DNA from: Escherichia coli
GTDB taxonomy: Bacteria > Pseudomonadota > Gammaproteobacteria > Enterobacterales > Enterobacteriaceae
Strand: one strand, 5' to 3'
Length of the DNA: 64,000 nt
Assembly: GCF_024700885.2 (NCBI RefSeq)
Contig: NZ_CP117016.1
A program made the translations under genes and the position numbers. Position 1 is the first letter of the stretch, and every line of letters starts with the position of its first letter. Below the pieces are notes generated by a model. That model was given only the letters and a program-made list of their open reading frames with translations. It did no database searches and was not told where the DNA came from. This document shows positions 2,368 through 53,733 of the stretch, piece by piece.

Positions 2368-5300
2368 ATGAGCGGAAAACCGGCGGCGCGTCAGGGCGAC
2401 ATGACGCAGTATGGCGGTAGCATTGTTCAGGGTTCAGCCGGGGTACGTATTGGTGCCCCCACCGGCGTGGCCTGTTCGGTGTGCCCCGGCGGGGTGACGT
2501 CCGGCCATCCGGTCAATCCGCTGCTCGGTGCGAAGGTCCTTCCCGGCGAAACCGACCTTGCCCTGCCCGGCCCGCTGCCGTTCATCCTCTCCCGCACCTA
2601 CAGCAGTTACCGGACAAAAACGCCCGCGCCGGTGGGGAGCCTCGGCCCCGGCTGGAAAATGCCCGCGGATATCCGCTTACAGCTGCGCGATAACACACTG
2701 ATACTCAGTGATAACGGCGGCAGGAGCCTGTATTTTGAGCACCTGTTTCCCGGTGAGGACGGTTACAGCCGCAGCGAGTCACTCTGGCTGGTGCGCGGCG
2801 GCGTGGCGAAACTGGATGAAGGTCACCGGCTGGCCGCACTCTGGCAGGCACTGCCGGAAGAGCTTCGCCTGAGTCCGCATCGTTATCTGGCGACGAACAG
2901 TCCGCAGGGGCCGTGGTGGGTACTCGGCTGGTGTGAGCAGGTGCCGGAGGCGGATGAGGTGCTGCCCGCGCCGCTGCCGCCGTACCGGGTACTGACCGGG
3001 CTGGTGGACCGCTTCGGGCGCACACAGACGTTTCACCGTGAGGCTGGCGGCGAAATCACCGGCGTGACGGATGGCGCAGGCCGTCACTTCCGGCTGGTAC
3101 TGACCACGCAGGCGCAGCGGGCAGAAGAAGCCCGGCAGCAGGCCATTTCCGGCGGGACGGAACCGTCCGCTTTTCCTGATACCCTGCCGGGTTACACCGA
3201 ATATGGCCGGGACAACGGCATCCGTCTGTCTGCCGTGTGGCTGACACACGACCCGGAATATCCGGACAACCTGCCAGCCGCGCCGCTGGTACGCTATGGC
3301 TGGACGCCGCGTGGCGAACTGGCGGCGGTGTATGACCGCAGCAATACACAGGTGCGCAGCTTTACTTACGATGATAAATACCGGGGCCGGATGGTGGCGC
3401 ACCGTCACACGGGCCGACCGGAAATCCGTTACCGTTACGACAGTGACGGGCGGGTGACAGAACAGCTAAACCCGGCGGGCTTAAGCTACACGTATCAGTA
3501 TGAGAAAGACCGCATCACCATCACCGACAGCCTGGACCGCCGTGAAGTCCTGCACACGCAGGGCGAAGGCGGGCTGAAGCGGGTGGTGAAAAAGGAACAC
3601 GCGGACGGCAGCGTCATGCAGAGTCAGTTTGACGCGGTGGGCAGGCTTAAGGCACAGACGGATGCCGCAGGCCGGACGACTGAGTACAGCCCGGATGTGG
3701 TGACGGGACTCATCACGCGCATCACCACACCGGATGGCAGGGCATCGGCATTTTACTATAACCACCACAACCAGTTAACGTCAGCCACCGGGACTGACGG
3801 GCTGGAGTTGCGCCGGGAATATGATGAATCCGGCCGTCTGATTCAGGAAACCGCACACAACGGCGATATCACCCGCTACCGTTATGATAATCCACACAGT
3901 GACTTACCCTGCGCAACGGAAGATGCCACCGGCAGCCGGAAAACCATGACATGGAGCCGTTACGGTCAGTTGCTGACCGTCACTGACTGTTCCGGTTATG
4001 TAACCCGTTATGACCATGACCGTTTTGGTCAGGTGACGGCGGTGCACCGCGAGGAAGGGCTGAGTCAGTACCGCGCATACGACAGCCGTGGACAGTTAAT
4101 TGCGGTGAAAGACACGCAGGGCCATGAAACGCGGTATGAATACAACGCCGCCGGTGACCTGACCGCCGTCATTGCCCCGGACGGCAGCAGAAACGGGACA
4201 CAGTACGATGCGTGGGGAAAGGCCATCCGTACCACGCAGGGCGGTCTGACGCGCAGTATGGAATACGATGCTGCCGGACGGGTCATCCGCCTGACCAGTG
4301 AAAACGGCAGCCACACCACCTTCCGTTACGATGTACTTGACCGGCTGATACAGGAAACCGGCTTTGACGGCCGCACACAGCGTTATCACCACGACCTGAC
4401 CGGCAAACTTATCCGCAGCGAGGATGAGGGGCTGGTCACCCACTGGCACTATGACGAAGCAGACCGCATCACGCACCGCACCGTGAAGGGTGAACCGGCA
4501 GAGCAGTGGCAGTATGATGAACGCGGCTGGCTGACACAAATCAGCCATCTCAGCGAAGGCCACCGGGTGACGGTGCATTACGGGTATGATGAGAAAGGCC
4601 GCCTGACCGGTGAGCGCCAGACGGTGCATCACCCGCAGACGGAAGCACTGCTCTGGCAGCATGAAACCAGACACGCTTACAACGCGCAGGGACTGGCGAA
4701 CCGCTGTATACCGGACAGCCTGCCCGCCGTGGAATGGCTGACTTACGGCAGCGGCTGGCTGGCAGGCATGAAACTCGGCGACACACCGCTGGTGGAGTAT
4801 ACCCGCGACCGCCTGCACCGGGAAACGCTGCGCAGCTTCGGCCGTTATGAACTCACCACCGCTTATACCTCTGCCGGGCAGTTACAGAGCCAGCACCTGA
4901 ACAGCCTGCAGTATGACCGCGATTACACCTGGAACGACAACGGCGAACTCATCCGCATCAGCAGCCCGCGACAGACCCGGAGTTACAGCTACAGCGACTC
5001 CGGCAGGCTGACCGGCGTCCACACCACCACCTCAAATCTGGATATCCGCATCCCGTATGCCACGGACCCGGCAGGCAACCGCCTGCCCGACCCGGAGCTG
5101 CACCCGGACATCACCCTCAGCATGTGGCCGGATAACCGTATCGCCCGTGACGCGCACTATCTTTACCGGTATGACCGTCACGGCAGACTGACGGAGAAAA
5201 CCGACCTCATCCCGGAAGGGGTTATCCGCACGGACGATGAGCGGACTCACCAGTACCATTACGACAGTCAGCACCGGCTGGTGCACTACACGCGGACACA

Positions 5301-6555
5301 ATATGCAGAGCCGCTGGTCGAAAGTCGCTATCTTTACGACCCGCTGGGCCGCAGGGTGGCAAAACGGGTATGGCGGCGTGAACGGGACCTGACGGGCTGG
5401 ATGTCGCTGTCACGGAAACCGGAAGTGACCTGGTACGGCTGGGACGGCGACCGGCTGACCACGATACAGAACGACAGAACCCGCATCCAGACGGTTTATC
5501 AGCCGGGGAGCTTCACGCCACTCATCAGAGTTGAAACCGCCACCGGTGAGCTGGCGAAAACGCAGCGCCGCAGCCTGGCGGATGCGCTTCAGCAGTCCGG
5601 CGGCGAAGACGGTGGCAGTGTGGTGTTCCCGCCGGTGCTGGTGCAGATGCTCGACCGGCTGGAAAGTGAAATCCTGGCTGACCGGGTGAGTGAGGAAAGC
5701 CGCCGCTGGCTGGCATCGTGCGGCCTGACGGTGGAGCAGATACAAAACCAGATGGACCCGGTGTACACGCCGGCGCGAAAAATCCACCTGTACCACTGCG
5801 ACCATCGCGGCCTGCCGCTGGCGCTTGTCAGCACGGAAGGGGCAACAGAATGGTGCGCAGAATACGATGAATGGGGCAACCTGCTGAATGAAGAGAACCC
5901 GCACCAGCTGCAGCAGCTCATCCGCCTGCCGGGTCAGCAGTATGATGAGGAGTCAGGCCTGTATTACAACCGCCACCGCTATTATGACCCGCTGCAGGGG
6001 CGGTATATCACTCAGGATCCGATTGGGCTGAAGGGGGGATGGAATTTTTATCAGTATCCGTTAAATCCGGTTCAGTATATAGATTCAATGGGACTGGCAT
6101 CTAAATATGGACACTTAAATAATGGCGGATATGGAGCGAGACCCAACAAACCGCCTACGCCCGATCCAAGTAAGTTGCCAGACATAGCGAAACAATTAAG
6201 ACTGCCATATCCTATTGACCAGGCCAGTAGTGCGCCTAATGTTTTCAAAACATTCTTCAGAGCATTAAGTCCTTACGATTACACACTGTATTGCAGGAAG
6301 TGGGTAAAACCCAATCTGACTTGTACGCCGCAGGATGATCCCCAGTATCCAGGGATGGAGACAAAGACAGCAAGTGATTACCTGCCACAGACAACTTGGC
6401 CAACAACTCAATTACCACCAGGATATACTTGTGCAGAACCCTATTTATTCCCAGACATTAATAAACCCGATGGGCCAGCAACAGCAGGGATAGATGATTT
6501 GGGTGAAATTTTAGCTAAAATGAAACAGAGAACATCGAGAGGAATAAGAAAATGA
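2368..6555 (+). CDS. rhsA: Rhs polymorphic toxin: PAAR-like N-terminus, YD-repeat core, variable C-terminal toxin tip
   Basis: 1395-aa ORF; N-terminal [17 protein letters not shown] (PAAR-like); many YD/RYxYD repeats; core ends with the DPIGL motif near nt 6016-6030, followed by an AT-rich ~175-codon tip of unrecognised family. Confidence 0.93.
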
Positions 6556-7121
6556 AAAGAGCTTTGTTCTTTTTGCTGATGATATTCGTTAGTTTTGGTG
6601 TTATAGCTAATTGCGAAACACAAGCTAAAGATCAAGATTGCTTTACCATTTTCACTAAGGGTACTATTTTTTCCGCGTTTCCTGTCTTAAATAATAAAAC
6701 CATGTGGAGATGGTATCAGAATGAGGACATAGGTGAGTATTATTGGCAAACAGAGCTTGGTATATGTAAAAATAACAAATTCACACCAAGCGGGGCGAGA
6801 CTCTTAATTCTCGTCGGATCACTACGCCTTAATGAAAATCATGCAACCAAAGGAACGTTGCAGGAGTTGCTAAATACAGCAGAAAAAACGGCGTTTCTCG
6901 GCGATCGGTTTAGAAGTTATATAAGAGCGGGTATCTATCAAAAAAAGAGCAGTGATCCAGCTCAGTTGTTGGCAGTCCTTGATAATTCAATCATGGTTAA
7001 ATATTTTAAAGATGAGAAGCCAACTTATGCTCGAATGACAGCACATCTCCCGAACAAAGATGAGTCTTACGAATGTTTAACAAAAGTACAGCATGAACTG
7101 CTTCGTAGTGAAGAAAAATAA
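6552..7121 (+). CDS. putative cognate Rhs immunity protein, secreted (N-terminal signal peptide)
   Basis: start codon overlaps the rhsA stop (ATGA at 6552-6555); GAGG RBS about 10 nt upstream; N-terminus [21 protein letters not shown] is signal-peptide-like; AT-rich like the rhsA tip. Confidence 0.6.
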
Positions 7122-7289
7122 AATCTCTTCCTGAGAAAATAAATTAACTATTCGAAAAAATATGTTCTTAATGGGTATCCAGGAACACCAGAAGGTCGAT
7201 TTGGAAAAATGGATTCCGATGGTAAGAATATCATATATTCTGAATGTAATGTTTTACCCACAACTTTTGAGATTCGATAGGTGTAGAGC

Positions 7290-7637
7290 ATGAGAAACTC
7301 ACTAATATTACTTATTATGATATTGTTTACAATATCACACTCAGTATTTGGAAAAGAAAATTCAGCGGAAATTTTAGTAAATAGTCGTGAAATGGCTTTG
7401 GAATTATCATATGTTTATATTAAATATATATACGGGAAAGAAAAAGCAGAATTTCAGAAACCATATAGTATTACAGATGACAATAATTGTTGGAAAATCG
7501 AGGGAAAACAACCGAAGACGTTAGGAGGAAATTTTACAATACTAATAGCGAAAAAAGATGGGCAAGCGTTGGATGTAATACACAAAATAATCCACTGTTC
7601 AGACGATTCAAATATTTTACCAAGGTGTGTTTCGTAA
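7290..7637 (+). CDS. small secreted hypothetical protein, possible orphan immunity protein
   Basis: 115-aa ORF with signal-peptide-like N-terminus MRNSLILLIMILFTISHSVFG; has a frameshifted paralog at 9240-9507; sits in the Rhs-associated AT-rich region. Confidence 0.5.
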   Translation: MRNSLILLIMILFTISHSVFGKENSAEILVNSREMALELSYVYIKYIYGKEKAEFQKPYSITDDNNCWKIEGKQPKTLGGNFTILIAKKDGQALDVIHKIIHCSDDSNILPRCVS

Positions 7638-7839
7638 CTATTTTGTGTACAATATGACTCTACATATCGACGAAAAAACCACTTGATTTGACAGGAACAC
7701 ATTCAAAAAAATTTCTTTTTCATTTCAGGAGCGATTTTCATCTGTTACTTGAAGTATCTGTGAGATTAAGTGACTCCCCCTAACGTCGTACTAAATAGTA
7801 ATTACTGGCCATACCGGGAGCAGTATTCGGCGCTTCCCA

Positions 7840-8080
7840 CATGCAGCAGAATAACCGCATCAGCGAAGATGTATTGTATTTTTACTATCACAATGTGTAC
7901 GGACGGTTTATGGAAAAGAATGAACATTAGATACGCGATGCGGCGGCAGGTTACACGGTTATCACTACGATAGCCAATACTGGCTGGTGCATTACCGCCG
8001 TGAACAATAGGACGCCGTACTGCTGGAAATTTCTTACCTTTATGACTCCCCGCGCCGCCGTATTGGGAAACGGGAAGCAA
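7840..8080 (+). pseudogene. decayed internal fragment of an Rhs core
   Basis: aligns by eye to rhsA nt ~5130-5370 (e.g. relic GYHYDSQYWLVHY and YLYDSPRRRIGKR vs rhs[14 protein letters not shown] and [13 protein letters not shown]); interrupted by stop codons; GC-rich patch inside an AT-rich region. Confidence 0.6.
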
Positions 8081-8654
8081 TCAAGATGAGGCTGATATAA
8101 TGTGCGGAATGCCTGAGTATTTTTAGAATAGGGGGGTAATATGTTTGATAGAATATATCTTGGTGATCGAGCAATAAAAAATTGAATTTGATTTATGGAG
8201 TAAACAAATTAGAATTCAGGTTAATTTAATCTCAAGGATAGCCTATGGTACAACAGAATGGAATTTTTATGATAATGAAGACTTAGAAGATGGTTATTTG
8301 GTATTTTCAGATGTTAGTTTCTTCAATATAACTCCTAATGGCTCTATTCCAGATGATTATATAATTTCAATAATTACAGATAATGTCAATGTTGAATATT
8401 TTGAATCAACTATAGTTGCTGTTGGTCAAATTCGAAACACAAATGTTGGTGACATTGATAATATTGGTGAATGTCAAATTTTCATCAGGTATAAAGACAG
8501 CTGGATTGAGAATAAACTCAAAGAAAAAATAATTGAATAACCATGTTATGTATAGACATTTTAGATGGAACGAACCAGAGGAAGGCATGCCTCCGACTTG
8601 GGTTATATGGGCACGGAGTTTTAGTGTAGTGAACTCAACGACGCAAACCGAATA

Positions 8655-8720
8655 ACCTGCCGCTGGCGCTTATCAGCACGTAAGGGACAACAGCGTAGTA
8701 CGTAGAATAATCCTACCCAC
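8655..8720 (+). pseudogene. short decayed relic of the Rhs core 3' end
   Basis: cctgccgctggcgcttatcagcacg is near-identical to rhsA 5811-5835 and to the yibJ copy at ~10669-10693; similarity decays downstream and is interrupted by stops. Confidence 0.5.
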
Positions 8721-8792
8721 GTAGTATGGACACAGGCCTAAGCGAGGTTCTGGTTTTCAAATTTTTCGGGAGTTAGATGATTGGAGGAACAG

Positions 8793-9158
8793 ATGATAAG
8801 AATCGCATTTTTAATAACCAATAAATTTCTTGAGATAGATAGTACCACTCTTGCTGGATATGATTTTAGCGGGATGAATCTACATCGTGCCACCCTCAAT
8901 GGTTATTGTCTTGATGGGGCGAAATTTGAAAAAACTCATTTAAGAAATGTAATGATTCAACATACATCAACTAGAAATGCTGTCTTTCGCAATGCGGCTC
9001 TGATGAATGCTATTCTGAATAACTCAGATTTCACTGGAAGTGATTGTAGTAATTCAAGGTCAATAGGTGAAAATTTTAAAGCAATAGATAATCATGGGAA
9101 AGATATAATAAATGGAAAAGGATTGCCTAATGTTTGCAAAATACATGACAACGTATAA
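8793..9158 (+). CDS. pentapeptide-repeat protein, hypothetical
   Basis: ORF with GGAGG RBS 5 nt upstream of ATG 8793 (the track ORF begins at an in-frame TTG at 8781); sequence shows pentapeptide-like periodicity (GMNLHRATLNGYCLDGAKFEKTHLRNV...AVFRNAALMNAILNNSDFTGSD). Confidence 0.5.
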   Translation: MIRIAFLITNKFLEIDSTTLAGYDFSGMNLHRATLNGYCLDGAKFEKTHLRNVMIQHTSTRNAVFRNAALMNAILNNSDFTGSDCSNSRSIGENFKAIDNHGKDIINGKGLPNVCKIHDNV

Positions 9159-9239
9159 GAAAATATTATTCAGAACCTATGTGATTGTATCTTTATTTTT
9201 ACATACAACACATGGGCGCAGTGTAATAATATTATTATA

Positions 9240-9507
9240 ATGCGCAAGTATGAAAGTGAGGGGAAATACACCGTTAGAAATTTGGTCAAAAATAAAGCTA
9301 TAGCATTGGAATTAGCTGAGATGTATGTTAAAAATCGTTATGGACATGATGCCGAAGAAGAAAAAAAAACCATACAAAATCATGGAATTACCAACAAGTT
9401 GGATTGTTGAAGGCACCATTGAATCAGACCAAATTGCTGGTAGGGTTTTTATTATAGAAATAGGCAAAAATGACGGGAGAATTCTAAATTTTGGCCACGG
9501 AAAATAA
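9240..9507 (+). pseudogene. frameshifted paralog of the 7290-7637 gene, interrupted in an A9 homopolymer
   Basis: frame A (9240-9410, MRKYESEGKYTVRNLVKNKAIALELAEMYVKNRYGHDAEEEKK) and frame B (9325-9507, ...PYKIMELPTSWIVEGTIESDQIAGRVFIIEIGKNDGRILNFGHGK) together align with the 7290 protein (SREMALELSYVYIKYIYGKEKAEFQKPYSITDDNNCWKIEG...ILIAKKDGQALDVIHKI); the frames meet at the A9 run 9361-9369; losing one A restores one ORF. Confidence 0.6.
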
Positions 9508-9611
9508 GTATGTAAGGATAAACAAACATCGTGTGTGCTGATGGCAGAGTAGGTGGAGGACTCCAGACAGTCAAACGATAGAAAAAGATAGTCTTTATGG
9601 AGGTTCCTGCA

Positions 9612-10454
9612 ATGTCGAATACATACCAGAAAAGAAAGGCAAGTAAAGAGTATGGTTTATACAATCAATGTAAGAAACTAAATGATGATGAATTATTTCG
9701 CTTACTTGATAATCGCAATTCATTGAAAAGGATTTCATCTGCCAGAGTATTGCAGCTAAGAGGTGGGCAAGACGCTGTTAGATTGGCAATTGAATTCTGC
9801 GCTGACAAAAATTATATCCGTAGAGATATAGGAGCATTTATACTCGGGCAAATAAAAGTTTGCAAAAAATGCGAAGATAGCGTTTTTAATATTTTAAAAA
9901 AGATGGCACTGAATGATAAAAGTGCTTGCGTTCGAGCTACAGCAATCGAGTCAACTGCTCAGCGATGCAAGAAAAACCCAATTTATTCACCTAAAATAGT
10001 AGAACAATCTCAAATTACTGCTTTTGATAAATCGGCTAATGTCAGACGTGCTACGGCATTTGCTATTTCTGTTATCAATGATAAAGAAACAATTCCACTA
10101 TTGATTAATCTGTTAAAAGATCCAAATGGAGATGTCAGAAACTGGGCCGCATTTGCAATAAATATCAATAAATATGATAATAGTGATATTAGGGATTATT
10201 TTGTGGAGATGCTTCAGGATAAAAATGAGGAAGTCCGTATTGAAGCAATAATCGGACTTTCCTACAGAAAAGATAAAAGGGTTTTATCTGTTTTATGCGA
10301 TGAGTTAAAAAAAAATACTGTTTATGATGATATCATTGAAGCTGCGGGTGAATTAGGTGATAAAACGCTACTTCCTGTTTTAGATACTATGTTGTACAAG
10401 TTTGATGACAATGAAATTATAACTTCCGTTATTGATAAGCTGAAGCGTTCATAG
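9612..10454 (+). CDS. yibA: HEAT-repeat protein
   Basis: N-terminus MSNTYQKRKASKEYGLYNQ at the internal ATG 9612 matches recalled YibA; repeated D/N-x-x-VR-x-x-A HEAT-like units; lies between Rhs modules. Confidence 0.8.
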   Translation: MSNTYQKRKASKEYGLYNQCKKLNDDELFRLLDNRNSLKRISSARVLQLRGGQDAVRLAIEFCADKNYIRRDIGAFILGQIKVCKKCEDSVFNILKKMALNDKSACVRATAIESTAQRCKKNPIYSPKIVEQSQITAFDKSANVRRATAFAISVINDKETIPLLINLLKDPNGDVRNWAAFAININKYDNSDIRDYFVEMLQDKNEEVRIEAIIGLSYRKDKRVLSVLCDELKKNTVYDDIIEAAGELGDKTLLPVLDTMLYKFDDNEIITSVIDKLKRS

Positions 10455-10495
10455 CGTGAGTTGCCTATGCACAGTGAGGTATTCCCGCCGGCACG

Positions 10496-11305
10496 GTGCA
10501 GATGCTCGACCGGCTGGAAAGTGAAATCCTGGCTGACCGGGTGAGTGAGGAAAGCCGACGCTGGCTGGCATCGTGCGGCCTGACGGTGGCGCAGATGCAA
10601 AACCAGATGGACCCGGTGTACACGCCGGCGCGAAAAATCCACCTGTACCACTGCGACCATCGCGGCCTGCCGCTGGTGCTTATCAGCACGGAAGGGGCAA
10701 CAGAATGGTGCGCAGAATACGATGAGTGGGGCAACCTGCTGAATGAAGAGAACCCGCACCAGCTGCAGGGGCGGTATATCACTCAGGATCCGATTGGACT
10801 GAAGGGGGGATGGAATTTTTATCAGTATCCGTTGAATCCGATAACTGATATTGACCCGTTGGGATTAGCGACCTGTTTATACAGCATAACTTTAGGTATG
10901 CTTTCATGCGTTTCAGATACGCCAAGTGATGATAATTCTTATGGTGTGCTTACTATTTCAGTCGCCTCTGGTAATAATGGTAATAATATGCAATGTAAAA
11001 ATAATCCTGGTTGTACACACTTACAAAATAGAGGCCCAATACCTCCAGGGGTATGGAGCTGGAATGTTAATGGTCCTGGAGCAACTAATAGAAAACCTAA
11101 TGGTATACGTTTAGTACCGTCAGCAAATACAGAAACGTATAATCGTGATGGATTTTTAACACATAGTTGTTTAAACGCTTTTGGTCCATCTTTAGGACCT
11201 CGATTCTGTTCCGAGGGTTGTATAACTGGTTCATCTAATGACATGCAAAAATTAAATGAGCTAATATTTTCAGAGCCAGATAGCACATTAACAGTGACGG
11301 ACTAG
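10496..11305 (+). CDS. yibJ: orphan Rhs C-terminal fragment (3' core plus alternative toxin tip) with L,D-transpeptidase-like motif
   Basis: nt ~10472-10840 are near-identical to the rhsA 3' core (5616-6070) including [18 protein letters not shown]; the tip then diverges; tip contains H-S-x14-S-E-G-C-I-T (His codon 11162-11164, Cys codon 11219-11221); symbol is positional only. Confidence 0.7.
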
Positions 11306-11309
11306 AAAT

Positions 11310-11705
11310 ATGGCAAGGTTATTAACAATTGTGCTTTTTTTCTCTATTTCTGCGAATGCAGTTACTGTAAACCAATTTCAGAGAGAGTTGGATTTGGCAG
11401 ACAAGGCAATATTATGGGCACTAATATCAGCCAGTACCCAAGAGGGACGAAAAGCGTGTTCACTTAGCTATTTTTCATGTAAAGCCGCAGAGGCTGAACT
11501 CGGACTGGCATATATGGCTGCTAATGATAACAAGGCATTTCTCACATCCTTATCTAGAATAATGATGTACAAAATAGATGCTGGACTTTCCGAATCCTAT
11601 ACATGCTATTTATTAAGCAAGGGAAAGATCATAAGACCATATCTGAAGAATCTAAATCCACACCAACTTGTCGCTGATTGCATTGAAACTGTAAATAAAA
11701 GATAA
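11310..11705 (+). CDS. putative immunity protein for the orphan Rhs tip, secreted
   Basis: starts 4 nt after the yibJ stop; N-terminus MARLLTIVLFFSISANA is signal-peptide-like; AT-rich. Confidence 0.55.
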   Translation: MARLLTIVLFFSISANAVTVNQFQRELDLADKAILWALISASTQEGRKACSLSYFSCKAAEAELGLAYMAANDNKAFLTSLSRIMMYKIDAGLSESYTCYLLSKGKIIRPYLKNLNPHQLVADCIETVNKR

Positions 11706-12283
11706 AAATAAAAAAATCATTGATATAGATTCAGTTAATATTTGCAATGATAATAAAAATATAAATTGGAGAGTTAATAGTACTATTGTAGCCATTGATG
11801 ATTCTATAAAATGCATCGATGAATAATAACTTAATTATATTTAAAAATATATTAATGACTCACTCTCCAGGAGTTTTTTAACTTAGTGTTATAATGAATA
11901 CGATAATTAAAAGTGAAGAGAAAAATAGTTGTATACATATATTACATGAACCTACATTGTGATCTATAAATTAAATATTTTTAAATGTGACTGTCATCCT
12001 TCAGATAATAAAGCCATCATCGCAATAGATGGAAAAGCACTCCTGCTCTTTTTTGATTAGAGCCGTGGCAGAGGAACAACTCATATCATCATTGCGATCT
12101 CGACAATGTATGGTCTGATCCTTCGGCAGATCAAGACGGATAAAAAATCCAATGAGTTCACACTCATCCCGAACTTCTTAACATAATGGATATTAACGAA
12201 AAATCATCGCAGCCAATGAAGTAATATGCAAAAATAATTAGTCCTTACAGGGAGCAAAGTTCCATAATCTCCCCCTTCCCTAC

Positions 12284-18569: not shown

Positions 18570-18932
18570 ATGAAAGAAGTCGAAAAAAACGAAATCAAAC
18601 GTCTCAGCGATCGTCTGGACGCCATCCGCCACCAGCAGGCCGATCTGTCGCTGGTTGAAGCCGCAGACAAATATGCTGAACTGGAAAAAGAGAAAGCCAC
18701 TCTGGAAGCAGAAATTGCTCGCCTGCGCGAAGTTCACAGCCAGAAACTCAGTAAGGAAGCACAGAAGCTGATGAAGATGCCGTTCCAGCGCGCGATTACT
18801 AAAAAAGAGCAAGCTGATATGGGCAAACTGAAGAAGAGCGTTCGCGGACTGGTCGTTGTGCACCCAATGACCGCGCTGGGCCGCGAAATGGGCCTACAAG
18901 AGATGACAGGGTTCTCTAAGACTGCGTTTTAA
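18570..18932 (+). CDS. yibL: ribosome-associated protein YibL
   Basis: 120-aa [29 protein letters not shown]; position. Confidence 0.8.
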
Positions 18933-19490
18933 GTTCCTTTCTCGTCGCTGTAATTACAGCCACTCACGATTTACTCGCTCCTGCTGGCACATGCAGGGGC
19001 CTGTTTTAGCGATCGAATATTTATAACGTTCTTAACATTATATATTCAACTCCACCTACACTTCTGAGCGCTCGGAGCAGGCTAAATTCTGAAAATCCGG
19101 TACAAATTAAAGAATGATGTATCAATATTAACAATGAATTGCCGCATATCAATGCTTGAAACATAATTAATTATTTAAATTTTTCTATCAGCATCGCAAA
19201 CTTCGCAATAAAACATCACTCAACTGAATATTTACCTTTCCCTGCCCTGGGCCTTTATCCGGTGAAACATTTGACATTGATTGACACCGATCATTAAAAT
19301 CCGCGCGATTAATATTATTGGCTACAAACCGAAATTGTTTGACACTTAATAACATATTCGCACAACCAATTAATACAAAAATTCTCTAACAAATTTATTT
19401 GTCGGATATGCTCCACTCTAATCATTCATAAAAAAAATGATTGTGCCGTAATTATCAACTGTATCGGGATTATGAAAAGGAATTCATCCT

Positions 19491-20174
19491 ATGAACCTAA
19501 AGAAAACACTGTTAAGCGTGTTAATAATAGTGCCTCTCTGCTTATTGGCAGGGTGTGACTATATTGAAAAAGCGAGTAAGGTCGACGACCTCGTTACACA
19601 GCAAGAGTTGCAAAAAAGCAAAATTGAGGCGCTTGAGAAACAACAGGAACTCGATAAGCGAAAGATAGAACATTTTGAAAAACAACAAACTACTATCATA
19701 AATAGTACCAAGACGCTCGCTGGCGTGGTGAAAGCGGTTAAAGACAAACAGGACGAATTTGTCTTTACAGAATTTAACCCGGCACAAACACAATACTTCA
19801 TTCTAAATAACGGTTCTGTCGGTTTGGCAGGTCGGGTGCTGGCTATTGATGCGGTTGAAAACGGCAGCGTTATTCGTATTTCACTAGTCAATCTATTAAG
19901 CGTTCCCGTATCAAATATTGGCTTTCATGCGACATGGGGCAATGAAAGACCCACCGATGCCAAAGCTCTGGCGAAGTGGCAACAATTACTTTTCAACACC
20001 ACCATGAATTCCACTCTGCAATTAATGCCTGGTCAATGGCAAGACATTAATCTGACATTAAAAGGCGTTTCGCCTAATAACCTGAAGTATCTGAAGTTGT
20101 CCATCAATATGGCAAATCTCCAGTTCGACACTGTTCAATCTGCTGAAACTCGGCAGCGAAAAAACAAAAAATAA
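19491..20174 (+). CDS. coiled-coil lipoprotein, SadB-like candidate autotransporter-adhesin helper
   Basis: 227-aa ORF; signal peptide with lipobox LLAGC; heptad-rich segment (QQELQKSKIEALEKQQELDKRKIEHFEKQQ); immediately upstream of the adhesin gene and co-oriented. Confidence 0.55.
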   Translation: MNLKKTLLSVLIIVPLCLLAGCDYIEKASKVDDLVTQQELQKSKIEALEKQQELDKRKIEHFEKQQTTIINSTKTLAGVVKAVKDKQDEFVFTEFNPAQTQYFILNNGSVGLAGRVLAIDAVENGSVIRISLVNLLSVPVSNIGFHATWGNERPTDAKALAKWQQLLFNTTMNSTLQLMPGQWQDINLTLKGVSPNNLKYLKLSINMANLQFDTVQSAETRQRKNKK

Positions 20175-20217
20175 ATGCAGCTTCTGCGCTTATATCAAGG
20201 AATAGAGAGCATCAATA

Positions 20218-53370: not shown

Positions 53371-53382
53371 CACGCTACCGCC
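53371..53382 (-). promoter_or_regulatory. ops element (RfaH recruitment site) in the waaQ operon leader
   Basis: plus strand cacgctaccgcc is the reverse complement of GGCGGTAGCGTG, about 50 nt upstream of the waaQ start on the minus strand. Confidence 0.75.
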
Positions 53383-53733
53383 CCAGGCTCAACAGCTACC
53401 TGAATACTGATACCGCACTGATATTGACGCGCTAGTGTATCACTTCTTTCGCGGCAATCCGACCCGAATGATTTTTAAGCACATTGTTGATTTTCAATAA
53501 AGAAATCAATCAAATAAAATCATTAGCAACCATATTCTTTCACTGTTGCTCTGCGATTCCTTCCTGCACGTACTGCAGAAATCAATGAATCGCATAAAAA
53601 TACAAAAAAAGTATAGATGTTCAGCAAGAATTGGCGGGTAAATTGCTATTTAAGTCAAAAACGGGAAAAGTAATGGTAAAGCCACAGCTAAATACATAGA
53701 ATCCCCAGCACATCCATAAGTCAGCTATTTACT

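Follow-up and report, generated by a model that had tools for sequence, protein, structure and literature searches.

An Escherichia coli orthologue of the Salmonella lipoprotein SadB, a probable helper of the adjoining UpaG/EhaG-type adhesin

The stretch of E. coli DNA analysed here (hereafter the window, 64,000 nucleotides) carries the gene order mtlA-mtlD-mtlR-yibT-yibL-[sadB-TAA]-lldP-lldR-lldD, in which TAA denotes a trimeric autotransporter adhesin gene. The frame designated sadB occupies 19491..20174 on the plus strand. It is intact and of full length in the ORF list of the window, begins with an ATG and would encode a prolipoprotein of 227 aa with a mature form running from Cys22 to Lys227; its assignment as a sadB orthologue draws on this ORF list, on the match to PDB entry 4C47 and on the predicted fold (see below). 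An SD-like AAGGA (19477-19481) lies 9 nt 5' of the start codon. The sequence of E. coli strain 1190, a canine isolate (NZ_CP023386.1), is 100% identical to the window and has the same CDS annotated (WP_001049677.1). The first-pass annotation had described a lipoprotein gene co-oriented with the adhesin gene and 43 nt upstream of it. Indeed, sadB, with its stop codon, extends to 20174, and the adhesin gene starts with the ATG at 20218, which leaves exactly 43 nt between them. Two minus-strand ORFs inside sadB (19542..19793 and 19559..19891) are mechanical and unsupported.

The downstream gene (20218..25947, +) encodes a protein of 1909 aa, the presumed client of SadB, which is placed in the UpaG/EhaG/SadA group of trimeric autotransporter adhesins by its Pfam domains and by its positional orthologues, annotated upaG or ehaG in other strains. 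The domains detected are ESPR (PF13018, 4.9e-15), YadA_head (PF05658, 4.6e-57), YadA_stalk (PF05662, 1.2e-149) and, over residues 1849-1909, YadA_anchor (PF03895, 6.3e-19). From ESPR through anchor, the protein is thus a complete type Vc trimeric autotransporter. The gene contains a tandem array of a 234-bp (78-aa) unit at 21835-23250 (6.1 copies, 96% identity) and a 300-bp repeat at 23548-24095 (1.8 copies). Adhesin length is 1909 aa in the window, 1778 for UpaG, 1658 in a cattle strain and 1588 or 1616 for EhaG, a variation that probably stems from repeat copy number. Salmonella differs in this respect, since SadA, at 1461 aa, is shorter than the window adhesin and has a different repeat array.

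A signal peptide (aa 1-21), the lipobox LLAG|C22 and an Asp23 at position +2 can be read directly at 19491..19559 (+). The N-terminus, MNLKKTLLSVLIIVPLCLLAG|C22-D23-Y24, has two lysines in a basic n-region, a hydrophobic h-region and a canonical L-A-G-C lipobox, in agreement with the earlier description of a 227-aa lipoprotein with a clear lipobox. Cys17 was considered as the lipobox cysteine and rejected on account of the Leu at -1. Window SadB is therefore predicted from its sequence to carry a type II signal peptide with a lipid-modifiable Cys22. The G-C-D-Y stretch is unchanged in 5/5 E. coli sadB alleles compared, and D-Y is also found in the Salmonella SadB chain, the structure of which begins after the cysteine. 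According to the '+2 rule' of the Lol pathway, an Asp at +2 after the lipidated Cys causes retention in the inner membrane (Lol avoidance). D23 is the predicted inner-membrane retention signal of window SadB. In Salmonella SadB, lipidation of Cys-22 and an inner-membrane location have been demonstrated experimentally (PMC3953254).

Family databases are of little help in naming the protein. Searches of Pfam-A (2025 copy) at E <= 0.01 and at E <= 10 give no family for window SadB, an ETRAMP match being spurious as it falls on the signal peptide. No NCBIfam model threshold is reached (PRK11530 gives 16 bits where 158 are required). RefSeq labels the protein 'DUF3251 domain-containing protein' and, in newer records, 'SadB/YajI family lipoprotein'. 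The first-pass annotation had proposed a similarity search against SadB, and such a search is decisive: with phmmer, the sole strong match among PDB sequences is 4C47 chain A, Salmonella enterica SadB (E = 2.6e-69). The alignment pairs query residues 23-227 with chain residues 3-207 and is gapless, with 109/205 identical residues (53%). The coiled-coil part is the less conserved, at 44% identity, and the C-terminal domain (aa 93-210) reaches 61%. Two further phmmer matches in the PDB (a gp41 helix and a designed coiled coil, E = 0.016-0.06) are explained by their coiled-coil composition alone. These data identify 19491..20174 as the E. coli orthologue of Salmonella sadB. Given the published mtl/lld position, the sadBA locus as a whole is orthologous, beyond mere analogy.

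A scan of all seven registers finds in window SadB a single unbroken heptad register from V31 to F90 (19581..19760, +). This corresponds to nine heptads with a polar, Gln-rich core, and gives substance to the heptad-rich region recorded in the first-pass annotation. The 18 a/d positions are V L Q Q I L Q D I F Q I T L V V Q F, i.e. 5/18 Gln. The nine-heptad trimeric coiled coil of Salmonella SadB is described as weak and polar, with Gln as 6/18 core residues (PMC3953254). Both the heptad core and the basic tail are kept, at the protein level, in all five E. coli alleles compared. A C-terminal beta-sandwich domain, extending over approximately aa 91-213 (19761..20129, +) and having a helix between strands at aa 157-167, is predicted from the identity to SadB, a structural model and Foldseek. 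The AlphaFold2 monomer model, computed from a four-sequence alignment and of moderate confidence (mean pLDDT 64), comprises one long helix (16-89), eight strands (90-206) and the helix 157-167. The model matches the architecture of the Salmonella SadB crystal structure, which has a nine-heptad coiled coil and two four-stranded sheets with a short helix in the beta5-beta6 loop (PMC3953254). When it is compared with the PDB by Foldseek, three 4C47 chains come on top (E = 7e-19 to 3e-17), followed by YajI (2JWY; E = 8e-4, 13% identity in the structural alignment). The C-terminal domain is therefore modelled as a beta-sandwich with the SadB/YajI topology, including the helix placed in the long loop between beta5 and beta6. 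An LTLKGVSPNNL-YLK motif is kept in all five alleles save at its one variable (K/G) position. By analogy with 4C47, window SadB would be a trimer.

Taken side by side, Salmonella SadB (STM3690, PDB 4C47; Grin et al. 2014, J Biol Chem 289:7388, PMC3953254) and window SadB are alike in length, in Cys22 and in Asp at +2. In both, a Gln-rich coiled coil of nine heptads precedes a beta-sandwich at the C-terminus, the fold of the window protein being predicted, and both genes lie directly 5' of a TAA gene between mtl and lld, with a spacer of 44 nt in Salmonella and 43 nt in the window. The resemblance to the SadB/SadA arrangement, which had been suggested at the outset, is borne out by the full-length match to 4C47, the best Foldseek E value and the mtl/lld locus. 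The lipoprotein genes found 5' of upaG (UPEC) and ehaG (EHEC/EPEC) likewise share the 227-aa architecture, the 43-nt spacer and conserved ESPR and anchor regions in the adhesin. YajI, an E. coli paralogue, is also a lipoprotein of the same beta-sandwich topology. However, its gene resides between yajC-secDF and nrdR-ribDE-nusB and is unlinked to an autotransporter (PMC3953254). The identification of the window protein as YajI was rejected: 2JWY was not found by phmmer in the PDB sequences at E <= 1, identity in the structural alignment is low, PRK11530 stays below its threshold, and the gene sits at the mtl/lld locus.

SadB is one of only two described dedicated TAA helpers. The other is TpgA of Acinetobacter, helper of the TAA AtaA, likewise a small envelope protein that is encoded beside its adhesin and promotes display. 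By this precedent, window SadB could be a TpgA-type anchor of the adhesin, linked to the outer membrane and peptidoglycan, rather than an inner-membrane assembly factor. This is very improbable. TpgA, built of BamE-like and OmpA-like domains, has neither its sequence nor its fold in common with SadB, and it attaches to the barrel and to peptidoglycan on the side of the outer membrane, whereas window SadB has no BamE-like or OmpA-like domain (Pfam to E <= 10) and a predicted fold of the SadB/YajI type. Moreover, the Asp+2 retention signal is invariant and Salmonella SadB is an inner-membrane protein.

The region between yibL and sadB (18934..19490, +) is AT-rich (33-35% GC in the composition profile, that of sadB being about 40%), is absent in K-12 and is presumed to be regulatory. 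Its best sigma-70-like promoter match, by consensus only, is TTGACA-18-TAAAAT (11/12; 19271..19300, +), about 190 nt 5' of sadB. The stretch around this candidate is the best-conserved intergenic part between alleles (0.94-0.98 identity). Repression of upaG by H-NS is mentioned in a passage of PMC5012682 that cites Totsika et al. 2012, and H-NS probably silences the promoter region of sadB and the adhesin gene in the same manner. The 43-nt spacer (20175..20217, +) contains a purine-rich SD-like stretch, AAGGAATAGAGAG, at 20197-20209. It is identical in three alleles and 37/43 nt are identical in EhaG-linked alleles, the length being always 43 nt. A hairpin scan finds no terminator-like site on the plus strand between sadB and the adhesin gene; a 4-bp spacer hairpin, GCAG-CTT-CTGC, was dismissed as it is not conserved in EhaG-linked alleles. 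The same scan detects a terminator-like hairpin of 13 pairs with a T-rich tail (25971..26010, +), 24 nt past the adhesin stop codon, that likely marks the 3' end of a two-gene transcript, and another after yibL (18977-19000). It would appear, then, that sadB and the adhesin gene are co-transcribed as one unit. Rfam gives no match in the sadB locus. Its only match in the window is a JUMPstart element (53371-53409, minus strand, 55 bits) in the waa LPS-core gene region.

Conservation of sadA and of a lipoprotein gene directly upstream of it, between the mtl and lld operons, has been described in Escherichia, Salmonella and Shigella, with a sadB-sadA spacer of 44 bp in Salmonella and joint loss of both genes in K-12 (PMC3953254). 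In K-12 MG1655, lldP comes 371 nt after yibL. Homology to the window ends at 18933 and resumes at 25969, leaving 18934-25968 (7,035 bp) missing, and this block comprises exactly the AT-rich upstream region and both genes. MG1655 has 95 nt of unmatched sequence (L008:5030-5124) in its place. The right boundary of the missing block falls at the terminator-like hairpin 3' of the adhesin gene. A different rearrangement is found in APEC E18055 (O2:K1:H7, NZ_CP126940.1; L002:4096-6472), where a small hypothetical ORF and an IS91-family transposase stand instead of sadB and most of the adhesin gene; a 3' adhesin pseudogene is left.

Where the lipoprotein gene is present, a YadA/ESPR/UpaG gene adjoins it in all 24 of the full-coverage matches sampled across the ranking, and the EhaG loci are organised likewise. 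It may be argued that a genuine SadB homologue could nevertheless have an adhesin-unrelated role in E. coli, with an envelope function of its own and mere linkage to the adhesin gene, since the paralogue YajI exists without an autotransporter partner. Against this, adjacency and the fixed 43-nt spacer persist even between alleles whose proteins differ by as much as 34%, the pair was lost jointly in K-12, and the IS91 insertion in the APEC strain removed sadB together with the 5' part of the adhesin gene. In the literature, moreover, SadB homologues were recovered as TAA neighbours, in Enterobacterales only.

A sensitive blastn search finds a sadB homologue in 4149/5426 complete E. coli genomes, always on the chromosome, the median being one copy in each genome. 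Nucleotide identity of the best match per genome is >= 95% in 744 genomes, 90-95% in 13, 80-90% in 1121 and 60-80% in 2271. Such divergence among alleles is unusual for a chromosomal gene at a fixed locus. Four alleles (L003:7089-7772, L004:7079-7762, L005:6387-7055 and L006:6457-7140) were compared with the window gene (19491-20174). At the protein level, window SadB is 89% identical to the UpaG-linked allele, 86% to the cattle-strain allele and 66-67% to the EhaG-linked alleles. Between the window allele and three others, dN/dS of sadB is 0.09-0.13 with dS of 0.6-1.9; dS of mtlR and mtlD in the same comparison is only 0.03-0.2. The sadB gene is thus under purifying selection in E. coli. The low dN/dS, combined with a dS far above that of mtlR and mtlD, points to ancient or imported allelic lineages maintained by such selection. 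Beside the locus, yibL (18570-18932) encodes a protein (YibL, WP_000665680.1) that is identical in the five strains compared, yet its dS is 0.27-0.58, which looks like a hitch-hiking gradient next to sadBA.

A dN/dS of about 0.1 between alleles and the match to 4C47 (E = 2.6e-69) both indicate that sadB is more than a chance ORF. Could it be a decaying, non-functional remnant carried along with the adhesin gene? The Salmonella operon is silent in the laboratory, the unit was lost in K-12 and is disrupted in some strains, and one partial copy occurs among the E. coli matches (H75, 46% coverage). Decay of the window copy is nonetheless scarcely credible, because the gene is full-length and gapless against SadB over the mature protein, its lipobox, SD-like site and start codon are intact, selection against amino acid change is evident from the dN/dS, and the partner adhesin is itself intact from ESPR to anchor.

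The preferred interpretation is that window SadB is an inner-membrane, periplasm-facing trimeric helper that raises display of the adjoining adhesin, and we consider this very probable as an explanation of the whole. This analysis itself establishes the ORF with its sequence features, its homology and fold, the synteny, the joint deletion and the purifying selection; that SadB is lipidated, sits in the inner membrane, forms a trimer and increases display 3- to 6-fold is known from Salmonella only. The same helper role in E. coli, including the chain-synchronising step described below, would follow by orthology. In Salmonella, SadB is tri-acylated and located in the inner membrane (PMC3953254). 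In an E. coli host, co-expressed SadB increased the amount of SadA at the surface 4- to 6-fold, lessened aberrant stickiness and made SadA more resistant to proteinase K. Salmonella with SadB displays SadA more strongly and in clusters, and without it display is reduced and diffuse. In an independent study, the effect of SadB on display was about 3-fold. The Salmonella sad operon is silent in culture.

By extension to the window, SadB would be synthesised as a prolipoprotein, leave the cytoplasm through Sec and receive its lipid on Cys22, and the Asp at +2 would hold it in the inner membrane on the periplasmic side. Its gene would be co-transcribed with that of the adhesin from the AT-rich promoter region, probably under H-NS silencing. 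Once concentrated on the membrane, the weak Gln-rich nine-heptad coiled coil may trimerise and present three beta-sandwich domains. Grin et al. proposed that, by keeping three nascent chains close to Sec, the trimer lets long repetitive stalks assemble in register (PMC3953254). In the window, a SadB trimer would accordingly hold or synchronise, transiently, three unfolded adhesin chains leaving Sec. If so, the synchronised chains would assemble in register, and more folded, protease-resistant adhesin would reach the surface via its own BAM-inserted barrel. With its 234-bp repeat array, the window adhesin is one to which the register problem proposed for repetitive stalks would apply fully. Because no direct SadB-SadA interaction could be demonstrated by cross-linking, pull-down or phage display (Grin et al., PMC3953254), the chain-synchronising step is put forward as a hypothesis.

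Surface display of SadA also occurs in the absence of SadB, but at a reduced level. UpaG and EhaG are reported (Valle 2008 and Totsika 2012) to be functional when expressed alone in K-12 hosts devoid of sadB; on this account, the helper would be dispensable for basic export. Of the two-gene adhesin export module that the first-pass annotation had envisaged, the paired SadB-adhesin locus stands, but 'export' overstates the case, as the effect of SadB in Salmonella is a 3- to 6-fold increase in display and better folding, and export does not require it. That the adhesin can be exported without a helper, and that binding between SadB and SadA has eluded demonstration, could also be taken to favour an adhesin-unrelated role. 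The display phenotypes, measured in both Salmonella and E. coli hosts, speak to the contrary and, together with the conserved linkage, make such a role improbable.

The unit formed by sadB and its adhesin gene is already known, described for Escherichia in the literature and named in RefSeq, and for this reason the feature is an ordinary one of low interest. Identifying SadB rounds off the annotation of this UpaG/EhaG-type adhesin locus, which comes from a canine E. coli isolate, but brings nothing new in kind. In practice, work on this adhesin family, or its use in surface display, calls for co-expression of the helper. The several very divergent, selectively maintained E. coli sadB alleles open a modest new angle, as natural variants that bear on whether helper and adhesin are matched.

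The structure of the window allele bears on this point. Up to about 19800, the 5' half of sadB shares 90-100% identity with the UpaG-linked O6 allele, with a dN of 0.006 over the coiled coil, and the 3' half is 86-96% identical to the cattle-strain allele, with a dN of 0.029 over the C-terminal domain. Window sadB (19430-20180) is therefore a recombinant mosaic of these two alleles. In the window, which is one example, the coiled-coil half of sadB travels with the adhesin N-terminal head type. One might speculate that this pattern goes beyond mere linkage and that, among the old and far-diverged sadB lineages, which exchange half-gene blocks by recombination, variants are tuned to particular adhesin variants, SadB being then a specificity-bearing chaperone. 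We hold this to be improbable; if true, allele-specific matching of helper and client would give a genetic handle on the SadB-adhesin contact.

Two segments near or within the adhesin gene are well conserved among alleles. An island at 20155-20350, composed of the last 20 nt of sadB, the spacer and the adhesin ESPR, is 90-100% identical, and its flanks differ by 15-70%. The C-terminal anchor of the adhesin is identical over the residues compared (the last 40-70). Elsewhere in the window, an Rhs element (approximately 2369-11826) comprises a 4.2-kb RHS core protein gene, then NTF2-fold, DUF6258 and pentapeptide-repeat fragments, then yibA. Beyond yibA lie orphan toxin/immunity remnants, namely an RHS fragment with a frameshift, then a tlde1-domain gene and an Imm57 immunity gene that is likewise frameshifted.
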